From NCBI GenBank assembly GCA_963707215.1, contig CAVPPB010000002.1, positions 26,865 to 90,864 of the forward strand: a stretch of DNA of 64,000 nucleotides. Direction: 5' to 3'. The notes beneath the pieces were generated by a model, which saw only the letters and a program-made list of their open reading frames with translations, was not told where the DNA came from and ran no database searches. Position 1 is the stretch's first letter; every line of letters starts with the position of its first letter. This document shows, one piece after another, positions 25,570 through 37,323 of this stretch. Made by a program: the position numbers and the translations under genes. This DNA comes from an uncultured Chloroflexia bacterium (GTDB lineage Bacteria > Chloroflexota > Limnocylindria > Limnocylindrales > CSP1-4).

Positions 25570-27264
25570 CTACATCACTTCGGGTGCCGAGATCCCCAGC
25601 AGGGTCAGCGATCGGGCGATGGTCAGCTGCGGGCGCCCGGAACAGCGCGAGGCGTCGCGACGATCGCTCTGGCTCATCGGGATCGACGACTCGGGCGTCA
25701 CGGTAGTAGGCGTGGAAGGCCGTCGCCAGCTCGGTCGCGTAGGCCGTGATGCCGTGGGTCTCCTCGGCCGCCGCGGCGTCCTCGACGACCTCGGGGAAGC
25801 GCAGCATCTCGCGGATCAGCGCGGCCTCGGGCCCGCCGTCGAGGCCCCCGGCCATCGAGGAAGCCGGCTGGATGCCGACTTCGGCCGGCCTTGCGCACGA
25901 TCGAGGCGATCCGGGCGTGGGCGTACTGGACGTAGTAGACGGGGTTCTCGTTCGACTGCTTCTTGGCCAGCTCGATGTCGAAGTCGATGCCCGATGTCGC
26001 CGCCCGTGAACCGAAGAACCAGCGGGCCGCGTCGACCCCGACCTCGGCCAGCAGCTCGTCGAGGGTGATGAAGGTGCCGGCCCGCTTGCTCATCGAGATC
26101 TCCTCGCCGTCGCGGACGAAACGAACCCAGGCCGTCAGCAGCATCCGGACCGCTGCCTTGTCGTAGCCCATGGCCTGGGCGGCGTTGCGCACCCGAGCGA
26201 CGGTCCCGTGGTGGTCGGCGCCCCAGATGTAGATCAGCTCGTCGAAACCGCGGCTGAACTTCTCGACGACGTAGCCGATGTCGGCAGCGAAGTAGGTCGG
26301 TTCGCCATTCGAGCGCAGGATCACCCGGTCCTTGTCGTCGCCGAACACGGTCGAGCGGAACCAGAGCGCGCCGTCCCGCTCGTATGTGTGGCCGCTCGCG
26401 GTCAACCGTTCGATCGCCCGCTCGACCCAGCCGTCGCGATGCAGCGAGCTCTCGCTCTTCCAGACGTCGAAGTGGACACCCAGGTGCTCGAGGCTCGCTT
26501 CGATGCCGGACCGCACGCTGCTCCGACGCCCAGACGCCGAGGATCCAGGCCGCGTCGCTCGGCTGCGGCGCCTCGTGCGCCGACGGCTCGGGCGGGATGG
26601 CCGGCGCAGGTCTGGACGTAGTCACCGTGGTAGCCGTCCTCGGGCAGCTCGGTGCCCTCGCGGATCGCGAGCACGGACAGGCCGAGGTTGCGCACCTGGG
26701 TGCCGAAGTCGTTGAAGTAGTACTCGCGGGTGACGCGATGGCCGCCGGCCTCGAGGACGCGTCCAGGAGGTCGCCGACGAACGCTCCACGAGCGTTGCCG
26801 ATGTGGAGCGGGCCAGTCGGGTTGGCCGACACGAACTCGACGTTGACGTGGCGCGGCTCGGGTCGCCGCGACCCGCCCCCAGTCATCCGGGCGGCGGAGG
26901 AGCTGATCGACCGTGCCGGCCAGCGCCCCGTCCGAGAGGCGGAGATTGACGAACCCCGGCGGGGCGACCTCGACCGAGGCGACCGGAGAGGTCGGACGCC
27001 CGCGCGGGCCACCAGGGCGTCCGCCAGGGCCTGGGCGATCTCGAGCGGGGCACGCCGGTACGGGCGGGCGAGCTTCAGGGCGAGGTTGGTGGCGAGATCG
27101 CCGTGCTCGGGGCTCGCCGGTCGCTCCACCTCGATGGGTGGCCGCTCGGTGTCAGACCCCGGATCGGGAAGGGCGCCGGCCGCGACTGCATCCCTCCAGG
27201 CGTCCTCGATCCCGACCCGGACGCGGGCACGCAGCGAGAGGATGGGCTGTCCGGCGTCGGGCAC
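25570..27264 (-). pseudogene. argS: arginine--tRNA ligase, interrupted by at least four frameshifts
   Basis: ArgS segments appear in successive frames: [30 protein letters not shown], then [36 protein letters not shown], then [17 protein letters not shown]...[17 protein letters not shown]...[17 protein letters not shown], then LRFPEVVEDAAAAEETHGITAYATELATAFHAYY. Confidence 0.85.
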
Positions 27265-27490: not shown

Positions 27491-28774
<1,284 letters not shown>

Positions 28775-29044: not shown

Positions 29045-29060
29045 GCGTCGTATGACGCTC
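29045..29060 (+). promoter_or_regulatory. imperfect palindrome GGCGTCGTATGACGCT about 70 bp upstream of the DUF11 gene start; related to the site at 34677-34692
   Basis: It shares the 12-mer TCGTCGGCGTCG and the GACGC half-site with the site upstream of the paralog-B gene. Confidence 0.3.
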
Positions 29061-29122
29061 GCACATCGTGAGGTCGGTCGAAATCGACAGACCCGGTCTC
29101 GGGGACTCGGGAGGGCAGATCG

Positions 29123-32100
29123 AATGTCAGGCGGTCTCTGGCGCTACATGAGCGCGCGGACCCGGCGAAGCGTCGTCTTCGTCTGGAGCGCGCTCTTCGT
29201 GTTCTCGTTGGGGTTGCAGTACCTCAACCTCGCATCGCCGGCGAGCGTGCTCGCCGTGCACGACGAGGGCCTGTTCGAGCTCGATGGCGATGCCACGAAC
29301 AGTGGGTCGCCCGGAGACGACTGGGACCTCGTCTACAACGGCACTTCGAGTGCCGACGACACGTTCTTCGTCAACGATCCGGTCGATGACCAGAACGATG
29401 ATTCGTTCACGGGCGGGTCCACGAAGGACGACCTGCCGATCAGCGGTTGGCTCTGGAAGGAGGCCAAGGCCAGCCAGGCGAAGAACGACATCGTCAACGC
29501 CTTCGCCGCCGCGTACACCCAGGGCGGCAACACCTACGCCTACTTCGGCCTCACCAAGTGGGAGGCCAGCGGCGACAATTTCGTCGGCTTCTGGTTCCTG
29601 AAGAACGCCATCGGCAAGTCCGGAGCGGGTACGCCCCCCGGCTCCCCGTTCAGCGGGAACCACAGCGTCGGTGACGTCCTTGTTCTCGCCAACTACACCA
29701 ACGGCGGTGCCATCGCCGACTTCGAGATCTTCGAGTGGGTCGGCTCCGGCGGTTCCGTGAACGGGACGCTGAACCTCATCGATTTGGGCGTCCCCTGCGA
29801 CCTGCCCGGCGCCGACGAGGCCTGCGGAACGACCAATGCCGACTACGAAACGGCGCCGTGGCCGTTCCAGGGCCGCAACGAGGCCGCAGGGCAGTTCCCG
29901 CCCGGCACGTTCTTCGAGGGTGGCATCAACCTGACCGCCCTGGGCCTCGACGATGCGTGCTTCACCGGCATCGTCGCCGAGACGCGCTCGTCGCAGTCGG
30001 TGGACGCCACCCTGTCCGACTTCGCGCTCGGCAACTTCAACACCTGTCAGCCGCCGACCATCGAGACCCAGGTCATCGACGATCAGGGTGCCTCGCTCGG
30101 CTCGCTCGGCACGATCAACGTCGGCGAGACGGTCTCCGATCGGGTCACCGTCGGCGGCCCGCTGGGGCTGGCCAGTGGCACGGTCGACTTCTTCCTCTGC
30201 GGCCCCGCCCAGAGCGTGCCTGACTGTTCGACCGGAGGCACGGCGGCCGGCTCGAGCGTTCTCGCTGGCGGGCAGGGTGTCTCCAGCCCGTTCACGGCCG
30301 ACTCGCCCTCCGATGTCGGGTTCTACTGCTACCGCGCCGAGTACACGCCGGCGCAGGGCAGCAAGTACCTCGCCGGGTCCCACACCAACCAGACCACCGA
30401 GTGCTTCCAGGTCATCCCGGCCCAGGTCACGATCCTCAAGACCGCCGGGTCAAGCCCGGTGAACGCCGGTGACGACATCAGCTTCACGCTCTCGTGGGGC
30501 AACAGCGGCCCGGGAACCGCGACAGGCGTCGTCGTCACCGACACGCTGCCGACGACCGGCGGCCTGGACTGGACGATCGACGGCTTCACCGGCACCGGCA
30601 GCACCTGCTCGATCGTCGACAACGTCCTGAGCTGCAACGTCGGGACGATCCCCGGCAACACCGCGGAGAGCGGGACGGTCACGGTCTCCTCCGCCACCAG
30701 CCCCGATGCCTGCGGGATCGTCGACAACACCGGCGAGATCACCTCCCTGAACGACGGCACCGCCCAGTCCAGTGCGCAGATCACCGTCAACTGCCCGGAC
30801 GTGACGGTCACCAAGACCGCCGAGACGACGCCGGTCAACGCCGGTGACGAGATCGCCTTCGCCATCGAGGTCGAGAACCTCGGCCCGGGCGTCGCCTACG
30901 GGGTGACCCTCAGCGACACGCTCCCGGGTGGCTTCACCTGGAGCGAGGACAGCGACGACTGCGAGATCGCGGCCGGCGTCCTGTCCTGCGACTTCGGCGA
31001 CCTTGCCGCCGGTGAGACGCGGACGGTCACCGTCAGCGCCTCCACCGACGCCGAGGACTGCGCGACGATCCCGAACACGGCGACCGTCGCCGCCACCAAC
31101 GAGCCGAGCTCGGCTACCGGCAACAACAGCGACAACGACGCCATCGTCGTGAACTGCCCGGACGTCACGGTCACCAAGACCGCCGACGAGGGCCCGTTCA
31201 GCGCCGGTGACGAGATCGGCTTCACGGTCACCATCAGCAACATCGGCGCGGGCACGGCGTACACCGCGTTCGCCGCTGACCCGCTGCCCGGCAGCGGCTG
31301 GAGCATCGAGTCCCAGGACGGCGGCTGGACCCTCGTCGGGGACATGCTCGAATTCGGCCCGCAGGATCTCATCGCGGGCGCCAGCTCGTCGGTCCACGTC
31401 GTTCGCGACACGACCGCCGAGGACTGTGGCCTCGTCGAGAACACCGTCCAGGTCACCGCCGGCAACGAGCCGGTGGCTGCCCAGGGCAACAACAGCGCCA
31501 ACGACTCGCTCACCGTCAACTGCCCGGACGTGACGGTCACCAAGACCGCCGAGACGACGCCGGTCAACGCCGGTGACGAGATCGCCTTCGCCATCGAGGT
31601 CGAGAACCTCGGCCCGGGCGTCGCCTACGGGGTGACCCTCAGCGACACGCTCCCGGGTGGCTTCACCTGGAGCGAGGACAGCGACGACTGCGAGATCGCG
31701 GCCGGCGTCCTGTCCTGCGACTTCGGCGACCTTGCCGCCGGTGAGACGCGGACGGTCACCGTCAGCGCCTCCACCGACGCCGAGGACTGCGCGACGATCC
31801 CGAACACGGCGACCGTCGCCGCCACCAACGAGCCGAGCTCGGCTACCGGCAACAACAGCGACAACGACGCCATCGTCGTGAACTGCCCGGACGTCACGGT
31901 CACCAAGACCGCCGACGAGGGCCCGTTCAGCGCCGGTGACGAGATCGGCTTCACGGTCACCATCAGCAACATCGGCGCGGGCACGGCGTACACCGCGTTC
32001 GCCGCTGACCCGCTGCCCGGCAGCGGCTGGAGCATCGAGTCCCAGGACGGCGGCTGGACCCTCGTCGGGGACATGCTCGAATTCGGCCCGCAGGATCTCA

Positions 32101-34322
32101 TCGCGGGCGCCAGCTCGTCGGTCCACGTCGTTCGCGACACGACCGCCGAGGACTGTGGCCTCGTCGAGAACACCGTCCAGGTCACCGCCGGCAACGAGCC
32201 GGTGGCTGCCCAGGGCAACAACAGCGCCAACGACTCGCTCACCGTCAACTGCCCGGACGTCGTCGTCGAGAAGACGGCTGACACCAGCCCGGTCAGCGCG
32301 GGCGAGGCGGCTTCGTTCACCATCGAGGTCTGGAACGACGGCCCGGGCATGGCCTATGGCGTCACCCTGACCGACGATCTGCCGACCGGTGTGGCCTGGA
32401 CGATCGACGCGACCGATCCGGCCGGCCTCGACTGCTCCATCATCGACGGCACTCTCTCCTGCAACCTGGGCGACCTCGCGCCAGGCCGCGGCGAGAACAG
32501 CGTCTTCATCCAGGTGGCTGGCGAGACCGACCTCGAGGACTGCGGGTCGCTCGACAACCTCGCCGAGGTCTCGGCCACCAACGAGCCACAGGCGGCCCTC
32601 GGGAACAACACCGATGACGCCTCGGTCATCGTGAACTGCCCCGATCTGGGCATCTCCAAGACGGCTGATGCCCAGGCCGTCAGCGCCGGCGACCCGATCG
32701 GGTTCACGGTCATGATCGCCAACAACGGCGAGGGTACGGCCTTCGACGTCAGCGTCGACGACACCCTGCCCGCCGGCTTCGCCTGGACCATCGAGTCCCA
32801 GGACGGCGGCTGGTCGATCGCCGGTGGCAACCTGACCTGGGGCCCGGCCGACCTGGCCGCTGGCGCCACCTCCTCGGTCCACATCGTGGCCGACACGGCC
32901 TACGAGGCCTGCGGCCTCGTGCCGAACACGGCCTCCATCTACCTCGACGGTGAATTCGTGGCCGACGACTCGGCCGCGGTCACCATCGAGTGCCCGGTCC
33001 TCTCGATCGTCAAGACGGCCGATGCCGAGACGGTCAACGCCGGCGACGCCATCGGCTTCACCATCACCGTCAGCAACGCCGGCCCCGGCGTCGCCAAGGA
33101 CGTCGAGTTGAACGACCCGCTGCCCGCGGGCGTCACCTGGACGGTCGACGGCGGCGCGGACGCGGCCGACTGCTCGATCACCGACGGCGACCTGACCTGC
33201 GACTTCGGCGATCTCGCCGCGGGCGCCAGCGCCGAGGTCCATGTCGGTGCCACCACCAGCGCCGAGGCCTGCTCCGTCTACGACAACACGGCCACGGCTT
33301 CCGCCAGCAACCACCCCGACGTCGACGACGACGCGGTCATCACCTGCGACCTGTCGATCATCGGCATCACCAAGACGGCCGACGCTGCAAGCGTCCTGGC
33401 CGGCGACCCGATCGGCTTCGTCGTGACGGTCACCAACACCGGCGCCGGCACCGCGTACGGGGTCAAGGTGAGCGACCCGCTGCCTGCGGGCGTGACCTGG
33501 TCCATCGATGCCGCCAATAGCGACGATGGCTGGACCATCGCCGACGGCACCCTGAGCTATGGCGGCGCCGAAGGCGTCTCCCTGGCCGCGGGAGCTTCGG
33601 TCACGGTCCACGTCACCGCCCCGACCACCCGTGAAGACTGTGGCGTCGTGGACAACACGGCCACCGTCACCACGACCAACGACGGGTCGGACTCCGCGAG
33701 CGCCTCGCTCACGGTCGTCTGCCCGGTGCTCACCCTCGACAAGGAGAACGACGCCCCGGTCGAGACGATCGACCTCGGCGACGGCAACGTCATCGAGCTG
33801 CCGACCGCCGGCGAGGGCGACACGGTCACCTACACCCTCGACTACACACTGGTCGACGGGCCGGTCACCGACGGCGTCCTCACCGACGTCCTGCCGGTCG
33901 GCGTGGAGTACGTCGACGGCACCGCCCAGGGCAACGACGAGTTCAGCTTCGTCAGCTATGACGCGGCGACCCGGACCCTGCTCTGGGAGGCGGCCACGGT
34001 CACCCAGAACGGCACCGTGAGCTACGACGTCGTCGTCCAGGACGGCGCGGCCGAGCTCGCCCAGCCGCTCGTCAACGTGGCCGAGATCAGCTCCAAGCAG
34101 ACGCCGCCCGACGGCGCGACGTCGAATGTCTTCGTCAACCCGCCTCCGCAGGTCCTCACCCCGCCGCCGACCGACACGTTCGGAGAGGCTCCGCAGGGCG
34201 GCAGCAACGTCGGGTTCGTCCTGATGCTGATCCTGCTCCTGCTCGCCGGCGCCGCGGTCCTGACGGGGTTCGTGACCCCGGTCCCGGCCCGGATCCGCAA
34301 CACCCGGGAGGACGGCCGCTAG
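29123..34322 (+). CDS. giant cell-surface protein with about 10 DUF11 (conserved repeat domain) modules and a C-terminal TPPPTD-TM-basic anchor
   Basis: Intact 1,756-aa ORF with an N-terminal signal/TM (VVFVWSALFVFSLGLQYL). It carries repeated Cys-bracketed modules of about 121 aa (CPDVTVTKTAETTPVNAGDEIAFAIEVENLGPG... / ...DEGPFSAGDEIGFTVTISNIGAG...) and ends ...LTPPPTDTFGEAPQGGSNVGFVLMLILLLLAGAAVLTGFVTPVPARIRNTREDGR. Confidence 0.8.
30781..32260 (+). repeat. perfect 729-bp direct tandem duplication (2.03 copies) inside the DUF11 gene; each unit encodes two DUF11 modules (243 aa)
   Basis: Unit 1 is 30781-31509 and unit 2 is 31510-32238, with 22 further matching bp. The track ORFs 30896-31594 and 31625-32350, and 30928-31152 and 31657-31881, translate identically. 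Confidence 0.9.
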
Positions 34323-34748: not shown

Positions 34749-35627
34749 ATGACACGGGGCACCGTGGACAGGCGGCCCAGCCGAGGGCCTTTCCTCGGCC
34801 GCGTCGCGCTGCTCCTCGTTTCGATCGGTCTGCTGAGCCTGTCGCTGGTCGGTCCGGCAGAAGCGCTGGCCGCATCGGTCGAGCCGGTGACCTCGCTCCA
34901 GGACGACCGGCTTGCCGGGAACCCGACCTGCGCCGAGATCGCCGCGTGGTACGGCGGCGGGCAGAGCTGGTCCGGCGCGAAGATCGACCGGGAGCCCGCG
35001 CCCGGCACCTACGAGTTCGGAGCCGGCAGGTCGATCACGATCAGCGGCTGGGATCCGACGACCGGCACGCTCGACTGGACCTCGACGTTCGGGGTCGACG
35101 CAGTGCTCTTCAAGGCCGGCCAGGGCAACGGCGGATTCAACACCCTGTACGTCTACGCGCCGACCGCGGCTTCCGTCGAATCGCTCGGCGACACCGGCCT
35201 CAGGTCACTGTCGCCGACCGGCGTCAGCCACGTCGACTTCTGCTGGGATACGGGAGCGCCGAGCCCGAGCCCATCGCCCGAGGCCAGCCTCCAGCCGAGC
35301 GCCTCCCCCGGAGCGAGCCCGAGCCCATCGCCCGAGGCCAGCCTCCAGCCGAGCGCCTCCCCCGGAGCGAGCCCGAGCCCATCGCCCGAGGCCAGCAGCG
35401 GACCCGTCGGATCACCCGAGGCGCCAGCTTCGCCGAGCCCGAGCCCGACCGGCGGGGTCCTGCCGGCGGTCGTGTCGCCTGCCGTCACGCCGCCGCCCAC
35501 GGACGACGTGATCATCATCGGCACGCCGGATCGGTCGCCCGCCTGGCTTGCCGCCCTTGCCGTCGGGCTGGCCTCCCTCGCCGCCCTTGCGGTCGCGATT
35601 CGCCGACGTTCCCGTCAGACCGGATGA
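34749..35627 (+). CDS. secreted protein: signal peptide, conserved N-domain, PS-rich linker and C-terminal TPPPTD-TM-basic anchor (paralog B)
   Basis: [74 protein letters not shown]...VSHVDFCWD is homologous to the 27491 gene. It ends ...VTPPPTDDVIIIGTPDRSPAWLAALAVGLASLAALAVAIRRRSRQTG. The linker is encoded by 3 x 57-bp repeats (about 35254-35420). Confidence 0.7.
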   Translation: MTRGTVDRRPSRGPFLGRVALLLVSIGLLSLSLVGPAEALAASVEPVTSLQDDRLAGNPTCAEIAAWYGGGQSWSGAKIDREPAPGTYEFGAGRSITISGWDPTTGTLDWTSTFGVDAVLFKAGQGNGGFNTLYVYAPTAASVESLGDTGLRSLSPTGVSHVDFCWDTGAPSPSPSPEASLQPSASPGASPSPSPEASLQPSASPGASPSPSPEASSGPVGSPEAPASPSPSPTGGVLPAVVSPAVTPPPTDDVIIIGTPDRSPAWLAALAVGLASLAALAVAIRRRSRQTG

Positions 35628-35681: not shown

Positions 35682-36431
35682 CTAGACCGTGATCCGGTCC
35701 CCTGGCCAGACGAAGCGGACGTTGCCGTCCCAGCGCTCGCGGACCGCGGCGATCGTCGCGTCGGGGTCGTAGCCCATCTGAAGGTGGGTCAGGAGGATCC
35801 GGCCTGGGTCGGTCCTCGCCGCCAGCTCGCCGATCGCCCCGCCGTCGAGATGGAGCTCGTCCACCGGCACCGGTCCCGGTCCGAATGACACCTCGGTCAG
35901 CAGCGTGTCGCCCGGCCGGACCAGCGGGGCGAGGTCCATCGCCTGACCGCAGTCGCCCGAGTAGACGAGCCCGGGGCCGTCCGCTCCGTCCACCGTGACA
36001 CGGAAGGCGTGGCTGTCGGGTGTGTGGGTGACCCGGACCGCATCGAGACGGAACGGCCCGATCGACCACTGCCCCACCCGCAGGGGCTCGAGGTCGAGAG
36101 AGGCGGCGAAGAAACCGTCGCTCGCGTGGAGCGCGTCGATTCGCCGATCGAGGTCGACCGGTCCGTGGATCGTGAGTCGACGCGAGGGCTTGAACTCGTA
36201 GCAGAGGTAGTGGCGGAGCGACACCAGGTCGATGTGGTGGTCGGGGTGAAGGTGGCTGATGACCACGCCATCGAGTCGGCTCGGCTCGACCAGCCCGAAC
36301 AGGGTCGGCAGGATCCCCTGTCCGAAGTCCAGGACGATGGAGGCGCCGGCGGCCTGGAGCAGGTAGGCGGAGCCGAGGGCACCCGGGCGGTCCGTGTAGG
36401 CGGGACCGGCCCCGATGACGATCAGCTCCAT
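35682..36431 (-). CDS. MBL-fold metallo-hydrolase
   Basis: MELIVIGAGPAY...VISHLHPDHHIDL contains the HxHxDH motif. Intact 249 aa. Confidence 0.8.
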   Translation of the reverse strand: MELIVIGAGPAYTDRPGALGSAYLLQAAGASIVLDFGQGILPTLFGLVEPSRLDGVVISHLHPDHHIDLVSLRHYLCYEFKPSRRLTIHGPVDLDRRIDALHASDGFFAASLDLEPLRVGQWSIGPFRLDAVRVTHTPDSHAFRVTVDGADGPGLVYSGDCGQAMDLAPLVRPGDTLLTEVSFGPGPVPVDELHLDGGAIGELAARTDPGRILLTHLQMGYDPDATIAAVRERWDGNVRFVWPGDRITV

Positions 36432-36516: not shown

Positions 36517-37323
36517 CTACGGGACGGGGACTTCCGACGGCTTGCCCGGGGGTTCCGACGGCTTGCCGGGCGGCTGCGACGGCTTGCCCGGGGGTTCCGA
36601 CGGCTTGCCGGGCGGCTGCGACGGCTTGCCCGGGGGTTCCGACGGCTTGCCGGGCGGCTGCGACGGCTTGCCGGGCTCGACCTCGCGGAGCCGGTCGAGG
36701 ACCTGGCCCGAGCGCTCGATGGCGTTGCGGAGACCCGGCAGGGCAGCTTGCGGCGCCGCGTCCAGGAGGCCCTCCAGGACGGCCAGGTGGGCCGCCACGC
36801 TCGCCTCGATCGCGGCCAGGGACCCAGGGTCGGCCTCGGCAGCGCCCAGCGCGTCATCGAGCTCGTCGACATAGGCATCCAGGATCGCCACCGCGGCACC
36901 CTCGTTGCGGACCACGAGGGCGGCGAGCATCTCGTCGAACCGGTCGTCGAGCTGGTCCAGCTGGGCCTCGGCGCGCAGCCCGGGATCGGCCGGCACCAGC
37001 GCCTCCTCGACCCAGAGTCGAGCGCCGTAGAGCGGGCCACCCGGCGCCGTCGCGGCGAGGGCGCCGCCAGCGATGACGAGGACGGCGGCGACCCCGAGCA
37101 GGGTCGCGGAGATGCGTCGCCGCTGCCCCCACCGGACCGTGGAGGCGCTGGCGAGGACAGCGTCGGGGGTCTGGTGCTCCATGCCGGCCGCGCGTGCCAC
37201 GAGTCGGGCCCGGACCATGCGCGCGGCAGACGGGTCGGGCCGCAGACGCCTCTCGGCGTACAGCTCGAGCAGCTCCTCGACCTCCCGGTCGTCAGGGATG
37301 CGGTCGCCCGCTCCGTCGTTCAT
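36517..37323 (-). CDS. membrane-anchored anti-sigma factor-like protein with C-terminal (PGKPS[EQ]P)7 repeats
   Basis: It overlaps (ATGA) the upstream ECF sigma gene. It has a single TM (LLGVAAVLVIAGGALAA), an extracytoplasmic helical domain and a tail of PGKPSQPPGKPSEP repeats. Confidence 0.6.
   Translation of the reverse strand: MNDGAGDRIPDDREVEELLELYAERRLRPDPSAARMVRARLVARAAGMEHQTPDAVLASASTVRWGQRRRISATLLGVAAVLVIAGGALAATAPGGPLYGARLWVEEALVPADPGLRAEAQLDQLDDRFDEMLAALVVRNEGAAVAILDAYVDELDDALGAAEADPGSLAAIEASVAAHLAVLEGLLDAAPQAALPGLRNAIERSGQVLDRLREVEPGKPSQPPGKPSEPPGKPSQPPGKPSEPPGKPSQPPGKPSEPPGKPSEVPVP
36525..36680 (-). repeat. tandem 21/42-bp coding repeats (GGCTTGCCCGGGGGTTCCGAC / GGCTTGCCGGGCGGCTGCGAC) encoding the PGKPS(E/Q)P heptads
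   Basis: About 7 near-identical 21-mers at the 3' end of the anti-sigma gene. Confidence 0.8.

Follow-up and report, generated by a model that had tools for sequence, protein, structure and literature searches.

A perfect in-frame tandem duplication of two CLIPPER modules in a giant predicted surface-protein gene of an uncultured Limnocylindrales-like bacterium

Results

The window analysed here, a 64-kb stretch of DNA, carries on its + strand a giant CLIPPER/DUF11 gene (29124–34322), the product of which is predicted from its sequence and by analogy to be located at the cell surface. The 1732 aa of the protein are counted from M25, which is also the start of the database protein P0001 and of the homologues, while the ORF itself opens upstream as well, at the ATG at 29052 (29052–34322, +), giving 1756 aa. 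The GC3 value of the gene is 0.93. The organism is represented by an environmental Limnocylindrales-like MAG and is not a known host-associated bacterium. From N- to C-terminus, a predicted signal peptide is followed by an all-beta head of ~400 aa, a row of nine CLIPPER modules and one CLIPPER_2 domain, and the protein ends in an anchor-like signal. The signal peptide-like N-terminus (29124–29255, +) contains RTRR, a hydrophobic stretch and ASVLA followed by VHDEG, and is conserved in the homologues; the cleavage site between the last two motifs was placed from the translation and not with a prediction tool.

The head (394 aa, 29256–30437, +) was modelled by AF2 as an all-beta N-terminal domain followed by an Ig-like domain (pLDDT 90.6, pTM 0.83). 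The region gave no match in Pfam, and Foldseek found only weak matches in the PDB (TM 0.3 or less), some of which are bacterial surface or adhesin proteins, such as Epf, GspB and an anchored protein of C. diphtheriae. Since neither search matched a known adhesive domain, the name "adhesin" can be given to the protein by inference only.

Over the whole protein, PF01345 matched 10 stretches and reached 478 bits (cut-off 24.6), and TIGR01451 reached 268 bits (cut-off 24). DUF11 (PF01345) is now named CLIPPER in Pfam, where it denotes an Ig-like domain that builds stalks and carries an isopeptide bond inside the fold; Costa et al. (2025, PMC12617251) describe it from the stalks of fibrillar adhesins. 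The best PDB match of the module profile was a CLIPPER structure, 9IFR (E=0.002), while a phmmer search of the PDB with the 243-aa repeat unit gave no match, so that only the module profile reached this structure; on the strength of this match, a CnaA-like Ig fold may be predicted for the modules. In the alignment, a Lys/Asp/Asn triad (K8, D42 and N95) was invariant in all seven distinct modules. The Lys and Asp residues align to the 9IFR sequence, and the spacing of the triad resembles that of K715/D748/N806 (PMC12617251); an isopeptide bond is thus predicted in the modules from the conserved triad. Given that the conserved linker (I/L)TVNCPDV is short, and in view of the literature on CLIPPER domains, the array would form an elongated, rod-like stalk.

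Within this array, two units of 729 nt follow each other directly, at 30781–31509 and 31510–32238 (both +), without a single mismatch. Direct base-by-base comparison at an offset of 729 showed that bases 30781–31531 equal bases 31510–32260 exactly, which means 2.03 copies of the unit and an exact self-match of 751 nt that cannot have arisen by chance. A separate repeat search also gave 100% identical copies at a spacing of 729, while TRF, with its period limit of 500, sees only the 363/366-nt sub-period at about 70% identity. The unit corresponds to 243 codons, lies in frame inside the ORF and encodes one "A" and one "B" module of PF01345, which by our own module boundaries are A1 (30792–31154) and B1 (31155–31520) in the first copy and A2 (31521–31883) and B2 (31884–32249) in the second. 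The 5.2-kb ORF is unbroken through both copies. The identity ends with these copies: the other modules are only 60–79% identical in DNA and 41–55% identical to module A in protein, as is seen in the diverged CLIPPER modules M6–M9 (32250–33719, +), which retain the invariant triad. The original prediction, that two perfectly identical 729-bp units each preserve the frame and encode two DUF11 modules, and that the identity is local, was therefore exact in its coordinates as well as in its substance. This genome shows a single duplication event, and as all other modules are diverged to the extent given above, the source genome bears no sign of ongoing variation. Two antisense ORFs over the repeat (30896–31594 and 31625–32350, −) were discarded as artefacts of the high GC content in which the sense frame is mirrored.

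All three unit boundaries fall inside an identical 22-mer, TCACCGTCAACTGCCCGGACGT, which encodes the inter-module linker (I/L)TVNCPDV, is present at 30781–30802, 31510–31531 and 32239–32260 (+), and forms the presumed recombination junction. The junction 17-mer was expected 0.00 times in shuffled control sequences. This placement of the boundaries at the linker 22-mer is what unequal homologous recombination, or else replication slippage, would leave behind.

In the C-terminal part of the protein, PF24346 matched with 114.6 bits, but its best stretch (residues 1437–1547), just like the TIGR04226 match (1439–1541), falls on the preceding module, M9; the assignment of 33720–34154 (+) as the C-terminal CLIPPER_2/DUF7507-type domain follows from the module boundary at residue 1557. 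The protein ends in an anchor-like signal (34155–34319, +), in which LTPPPTDT (34155–34178), a 10-aa spacer, a hydrophobic helix (34209–34277) and the basic tail PVPARIRNTREDGR follow each other. PPT[DST] with a hydrophobic stretch and a basic tail was found in 102 of 120 homologues, and the family consensus of the motif is [LIV]T[LP]PPT[DS]T. The signal matched none of the NCBIfam sorting-signal models, and no sortase-like TLxTC motif occurs in a coding frame of the 64-kb window. With LTPPPTDT in place of LPXTG and no anchor model matching, the protein was not regarded as an LPXTG sortase substrate.

The gene is a positional orthologue across Limnocylindrales MAGs, and synteny of the locus extends over MAGs of both Limnocylindrales and Chloroflexia. 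Among the 120 homologues, which represent differences between species, the number of modules is mostly 6–10. Module pairs of at least 98% identity occur in seven of them, three of which were confirmed in DNA, and from this level the identities of module pairs grade down continuously to about 75%. The near-identical pairs (≥98%) cluster at array positions 3–5, and array index 2–3 holds 23 of the 26 adjacent pairs with at least 80% identity. In DNA, L007 has a 363-nt repeat in 3.1 copies and L008 a 375-nt repeat in 2.1 copies, both at 100% identity, while the duplicated copies of L009, located on a 1.05-Mb contig, are 99.7% identical. Over the gene, L008 and L009 share 85.5% identity; the duplicated copies show 100% and 99.7% identity within the respective genomes and 94.5% between them. 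In the clade of P0082, P0063, P0018 and P0058 two copies were kept at 82–87% identity, while in P0064, P0068 and P0073 the copies are 98–100% identical and both resemble copy 1 of the outgroup. Read in this way, the sequences of the wider L008/L009 clade point to an old duplication that was homogenized in some lineages, a pattern of concerted evolution affecting a duplicated module.

In the closest relative, P0002, just one A–B pair immediately precedes the orthologue of M6, but with its 54% identity this relative dates nothing for the duplication. Exact look-ups of the 1756-aa and the 1732-aa form of the protein in a contig index gave no match, and the cluster of the protein has one member only. 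No sequence from the same species was found, none exceeding 57% identity in the collections searched. The full-length protein search for same-species alleles gave this 54% relative as the nearest one; a search with the M1–M6 segment gave nothing above 51%, which is a weak negative as it missed P0001 itself; an exact 30-mer had 0 matches in the JGI metagenomes; a degenerate-pattern scan of metagenomes returned one relative at 57%; and the GTDB genomes contained relatives at 39–55% identity.

The surroundings of the gene contain several frame breaks. Compared with intact orthologues, argS shifts frame at least three times, and a hutI-like gene and neighbouring genes are broken too. When the argS breaks were checked for a position in homopolymers, which would suggest a nanopore-type error, they were not clearly in such tracts. 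These broken frames indicate that the quality of the consensus is imperfect, and minor differences between the two copies could have been lost in polishing.

Discussion

Considering these results, we regard it as likely that an A+B cassette of 243 aa was duplicated in tandem and in frame in the CLIPPER stalk of a protein that is secreted and anchored by its C-terminus, through recombination or slippage at copies of the linker sequence. Homologous recombination or replication slippage would have taken place between two linker-coding copies with 22 nt of identity, 729 nt apart, which marked the starts of modules A and M6. Either the duplication itself or the last homogenizing conversion would be recent relative to the divergence among all other modules; thus, the suggestion that the perfect identity reflects a recent event holds in the sense that a recent recombination, whether duplicating or homogenizing, is the best reading. 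The stalk would now comprise nine CLIPPER modules instead of seven, and as two Ig-like domains were added, the head would be pushed further from the cell surface, by analogy on the order of 8–10 nm. Two perfect direct repeats of 729 nt lend themselves well to RecA-type unequal exchange, so that the cassette can be expected to be gained or lost again, and the same process recurs in this region of the array across the family of orthologues. The duplication is real but ordinary, being one of the common ways in which repetitive surface proteins alter their length. An involvement in phase or antigenic variation or in length tuning was also suggested at the outset. Length tuning is plausible, given the analogy to Periscope Proteins and the variable module number of the orthologues, but an on/off switch was rejected, because the coding unit is a multiple of three nucleotides and the frame is kept, and antigenic variation finds no support in these results.

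Three other readings were weighed against this one. The locus could be an actively variable one of the Periscope type, where the cassette number is polymorphic in the population, stalk length is under selection and the two-copy state is just the majority or a chance allele. The recombination-prone nature of perfect 729-nt repeats, a mechanism proposed for Periscope Proteins (PMC8201768, PMC9704523), favours this view, as do the 6–10 modules of the orthologues, the positional hot spot, and the concerted evolution seen in related genomes. Nevertheless, it appears unlikely: identity is confined here to two copies of a single cassette, whereas classic Periscope Proteins contain long near-identical arrays, no conspecific variation is on record, as the closest sequences found have at most 57% identity, and the duplication common to L008 and L009 has persisted over about 15% DNA divergence, which means that such duplications can be stably inherited. 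The history of that clade, with 82–87% identical copies in four homologues against 98–100% in three others, also raises the idea that the duplication is old and that its copies were recently homogenized by gene conversion. This we consider improbable, since the tract of identity is bounded precisely by the 22-nt linker homology at either end and spans one full period plus 22 nt; simple unequal exchange gives such a tract, while a conversion tract need not match the unit boundaries. The single A–B pair of the closest relative points in the same direction, although a relative this distant (54% identity) gives no date for the event.

An assembly or polishing artefact would imply that the true copy number is one or more than two, or that small differences between the copies were made identical by the consensus. 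Copy numbers are notoriously miscounted where perfect repeats exceed the k-mers of short reads, and the frame breaks relative to orthologues in several genes at 13.9–27.5 kb suggest consensus errors. On the other hand, a contig of 479 kb could hardly have been assembled over such repeats unless spanning information was available, both copies lie within an uninterrupted ORF, the structure of the junction is biologically sensible, and analogous perfect duplications are present in independent orthologue assemblies, one of them on the 1.05-Mb contig, all of which makes an artefact quite improbable. A genuine in-frame duplication at the linker thus remains our preferred explanation.

The nearest known systems are the Periscope Proteins, that is, SasG/Aap, Rib/alpha C, the Sgo_0707 SHIRT domains and CdrA (Whelan et al. 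2021, PMC8201768; reviewed in PMC9704523). Like these, the protein described here is a single chain with an N-terminal head, a predicted stalk of tandem Ig-like domains and, at its C-terminus, an anchor-like signal; whole domains are repeated in tandem with identical DNA, the repeat number differs among homologues, and gain and loss are proposed to occur by intragenic homologous recombination. Unlike in these proteins, only one cassette is repeated, twice, while the rest of the array is diverged, so that two 243-aa copies at 100% beside five other modules at 60–79% DNA identity make up a minimal array. Furthermore, the repeat unit comprises two unlike domains and therefore identical domains are not adjacent, the variation seen here is between species only, while the known examples vary among closely related strains, and the host is an uncultured environmental Chloroflexota lineage whose anchor motif is not LPXTG.

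The likeness to the stalks of CLIPPER fibrillar adhesins (PMC12617251, 9IFR) lies in the strong Pfam match, the Lys-Asp-Asn triad of every module, and the tandem modules in the middle of a long protein that starts with a predicted signal peptide and has a sorting-like C-terminus. The modules also frequently contain cysteines, as PMC12617251 reports for Chloroflexota. The head, however, is not a recognized adhesive domain, and the isopeptide bond is predicted here from the sequence. With LPXTG proteins and isopeptide pilins such as RrgB, the protein shares the tripartite C-terminus of motif, hydrophobic helix and basic tail, and with the pilins (RrgB, TIGR04226) also the match to an isopeptide D2-type model near the C-terminus, but it differs from LPXTG proteins in its [LIV]T[LP]PPT[DS]T motif and in the lack of a TLxTC sortase motif in the window. 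As in simple-sequence contingency loci, a repeat mediates change in a surface-protein gene; in contrast to those loci, which act by slipped-strand mispairing, the 729-nt unit alters the length and not the reading frame.

Most descriptions of surface stalks that vary in length by means of DNA-identical domain repeats come from host-associated pathogens, and a CLIPPER-based case in environmental Chloroflexota modestly widens the known range of this mechanism. Only tentatively, and with some doubt, can a wider picture be drawn, in which a Periscope-like length-variation system would exist across free-living uncultured Limnocylindria. There, a conserved surface locus would have its hot spot of repeated duplication and concerted evolution at CLIPPER modules 3–5, and the stalk and small flanking paralogous secreted proteins would have in common an undescribed sorting signal of the family consensus type, along with a putative anchoring enzyme. 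Taken alone, a duplication of this kind is to be expected and raises no new question. The locus offers a place where repeat dynamics could be measured in nature with long-read metagenomes, and for annotation it flags a site where assemblies may miscount domains.

The 729-nt duplication and the gene that carries it

Direct comparison showed that the 30781–31531 segment (751 nt) recurs 729 nt downstream without a single mismatch, which bears out the coordinates and the description of the perfect 729-bp duplication given in the original prediction. The repeat extends over 30781–32260 (2.03 units of 729 nt; G+C of the window is 72%), and a separate repeat search likewise found 100% copies at a spacing of 729. 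TRF, whose maximum period (500) is below the length of the unit, picked up just the 363/366-nt sub-period inside it, at ~70%. The unit corresponds to 243 codons and lies in frame within one long ORF (29052–34322, + strand), which holds the whole repeat and whose G+C by codon position (GC3 of 0.93) is that of a genuine gene. Thus, the reading frame is preserved as predicted, while phase (on/off) switching, named there as a usual correlate of domain-number variation, is ruled out because a unit in frame is unable to turn the gene on or off. The repeat was rejected as a contingency locus for the same reason, as a change in copy number leaves the frame unchanged.

The true start of the protein is likely M25 at 29124, where its database copy (P0001) and the homologues start. 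Pfam identified ten DUF11 stretches (PF01345, 478 bits) and DUF7507 (PF24346), and NCBIfam added TIGR01451 and, close to the C-terminus, an isopeptide D2-type domain. PF01345 now carries the name CLIPPER and denotes a CnaA-like Ig domain in which Lys and Asn form an intramolecular isopeptide bond; this domain, with one crystal structure (9IFR), has been described as forming the stalk in fibrillar adhesins (PMC12617251). The best PDB match of our module profile was also 9IFR (E=0.002), and K8, D42, and N95 were invariant in the alignment of the seven distinct modules. Judged from its sequence, the protein clearly belongs to the CLIPPER/DUF11 family. Its N-terminus is signal-peptide-like, and the head (residues 69–462) gave a confident all-beta predicted model (pLDDT 90.6). 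Since the head has no Pfam family and its model matched solved structures only weakly, the protein is a putative adhesin.

Origin of the duplication

When the modules are delimited at the conserved Cys-Pro-Asp, their order is M1-A-B-A-B-M6-M7-M8-M9, after which comes a CLIPPER_2 domain. Modules A and B, which make up the 729-nt unit, are just 48% identical to each other, so the identical domains are not adjacent in the stalk. The linker (I/L)TVNCPDV is encoded by the 22-mer TCACCGTCAACTGCCCGGACGT, found at 30781, 31510, and 32239, and the sequences outside the outermost copies (left of the first, right of the third) are unrelated. Unequal exchange or slippage between two linker copies, those initially ahead of A and M6, would generate exactly the observed structure. 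As a result of the duplication, the stalk has two more Ig-like domains (nine versus seven CLIPPER modules). By analogy with what is known of CLIPPER and Periscope proteins, gain of the cassette in a rod-like array should project the head farther, by about the length of two domains. Perfect 729-nt direct repeats far exceed the minimum length for RecA-dependent exchange; consequently, further expansion or contraction of the cassette is expected.

The protein is a singleton in a 5.8-billion-protein collection and is encoded on a 479-kb contig present in NCBI and ENA; neither reads nor conspecific sequences were found when sought. The closest relative (P0002, 54% identical) contains the A-B pair just once, directly before the M6 orthologue. 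Cutting 120 homologues into modules by an HMM built from the window protein revealed mostly 6–10 modules per protein. In seven proteins, two modules shared at least 98% identity, and the best-pair identities formed a continuum down to about 75%. The adjacent pairs of at least 80% identity were concentrated at array index 2–3, which corresponds to modules three to five (23 of 26). DNA was retrieved for three proteins with near-identical pairs, and their loci carried 363 nt ×3.1 at 100% (L007), 375 nt ×2.1 at 100% (L008), and the L008-type duplication at 99.7% (L009, on a 1.05-Mb contig). Over their whole length, the genes of L008 and L009 share 85.5% identity, with 89–90% in the flanking modules, and the duplicated copies are 94.5% identical between the two genomes versus 100% (L008) and 99.7% (L009) within them. 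In the wider clade of these loci, the duplicated pair is 82–87% identical in some lineages and 98–100% in others, a pattern that reads as concerted evolution, or as loss followed by re-duplication. Between some orthologues in the set P0064, P0068, P0073, P0082, and P0063 (L008, L009), the duplicated module shows 82–89% amino acid identity versus about 42–44% for the N-terminal head, which suggests that the head diverges fast or that stalk cassettes are exchanged between lineages.

The best-supported explanation of the duplication is a recent homologous recombination event in a stalk array that repeatedly undergoes such events in this family. The assembly is imperfect, and polishing may have removed minor differences between the two units; the true copy number may also differ from the assembled one, through polymorphism within the population or collapse of a longer array. 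The argS gene (25573–27234, minus strand) has at least three frame shifts compared with intact orthologues, and the hutI-like amidohydrolase gene, its upstream neighbour, and a gene at ~14.3 kb each break frame (~14300, ~21669, ~22290, and ~23040), all within 13.9–27.5 kb. In-frame stops seemingly occur in the DUF8575 and MBL genes as well. These defects represent either clustered consensus indel errors or real gene decay, and the frame breaks are not clearly at homopolymers. The 5.2-kb CLIPPER ORF and the downstream genes are intact.

Among known kinds, the gene comes closest to the Periscope Proteins, surface proteins with stalks of DNA-identical tandem domains whose number is varied by intragenic recombination (PMC8201768, PMC9704523). 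It works like a minimal case, but membership is not asserted because the class is defined by variation between strains and only one cassette is repeated here. Most deserving of follow-up are the hot spot seen across the family, the concerted evolution, and the common non-LPXTG C-terminal signal.

C-terminal signal and neighbouring genes

The C-terminus of the giant protein (34155–34319) consists of LTPPPTDT and, after a spacer of 10 aa, a hydrophobic helix with a basic tail behind it, and on the basis of this motif its assignment as an LPXTG protein was rejected. PPT[DST] was present in 102 of the 120 homologues, and VPNTA-like motifs in a few others. None of the NCBIfam sorting-signal models matched the signal, and a search of the 64-kb window for the sortase motif TLxTC in a coding frame found none. 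The same tripartite layout ([LIV]T[LP]PPT[DS]T, ~10 aa spacer, hydrophobic helix, basic tail) terminates both flanking small secreted proteins (28634–28774 and 35487–35627), encoded on the + strand upstream (27491–28774) and downstream (34749–35627) of the giant gene. These paralogues, which share 61% identity across an alignment of about 260 residues, each comprise a signal peptide, a ~150-aa conserved domain beginning SVEPVTS.QD.RLAGNP.C, which has no Pfam or NCBIfam family, and a Pro/Ser-rich linker before the C-terminal signal. The linkers contain tandem repeats, an 18/72-nt PSPSPS-type in the upstream gene (28044–28591, about 25 copies, 73–75%) and a perfect 54-nt ×2.5 in the downstream one (35260–35396). 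One to three homologues accompany the giant gene in L005, L007, and L009, loci of relatives.

The locus is syntenic among relatives (Candidatus Limnocylindrales and "uncultured Chloroflexia" MAGs), so the giant-gene homologues at these loci are positional orthologues. The order is a DUF8575/Hvo_1808-like gene, argS (minus), small unknown secreted proteins, and the giant gene, followed by small unknown proteins, the MBL-fold, anti-sigma-like, and ECF sigma genes (all minus), and a PHP gene. The product of the 36517–37323 gene (minus), beside the ECF sigma factor, is probably an anti-sigma factor. A perfect 42-nt ×3.3 tandem repeat (36535–36672) encodes (PGKPSQ/PGKPSE)n at its C-terminus, making this the third gene here to carry tandem repeats of 100% identity. 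The MBL-fold gene (35682–36431, minus) adjoins the locus in all relatives; its product matched the cyclic-nucleotide-degrading phosphodiesterase NF041851 below threshold (121 bits versus a cut-off of 400), and its orthologues have weak precomputed Pfam matches to Anti-Pycsar Apyc1.
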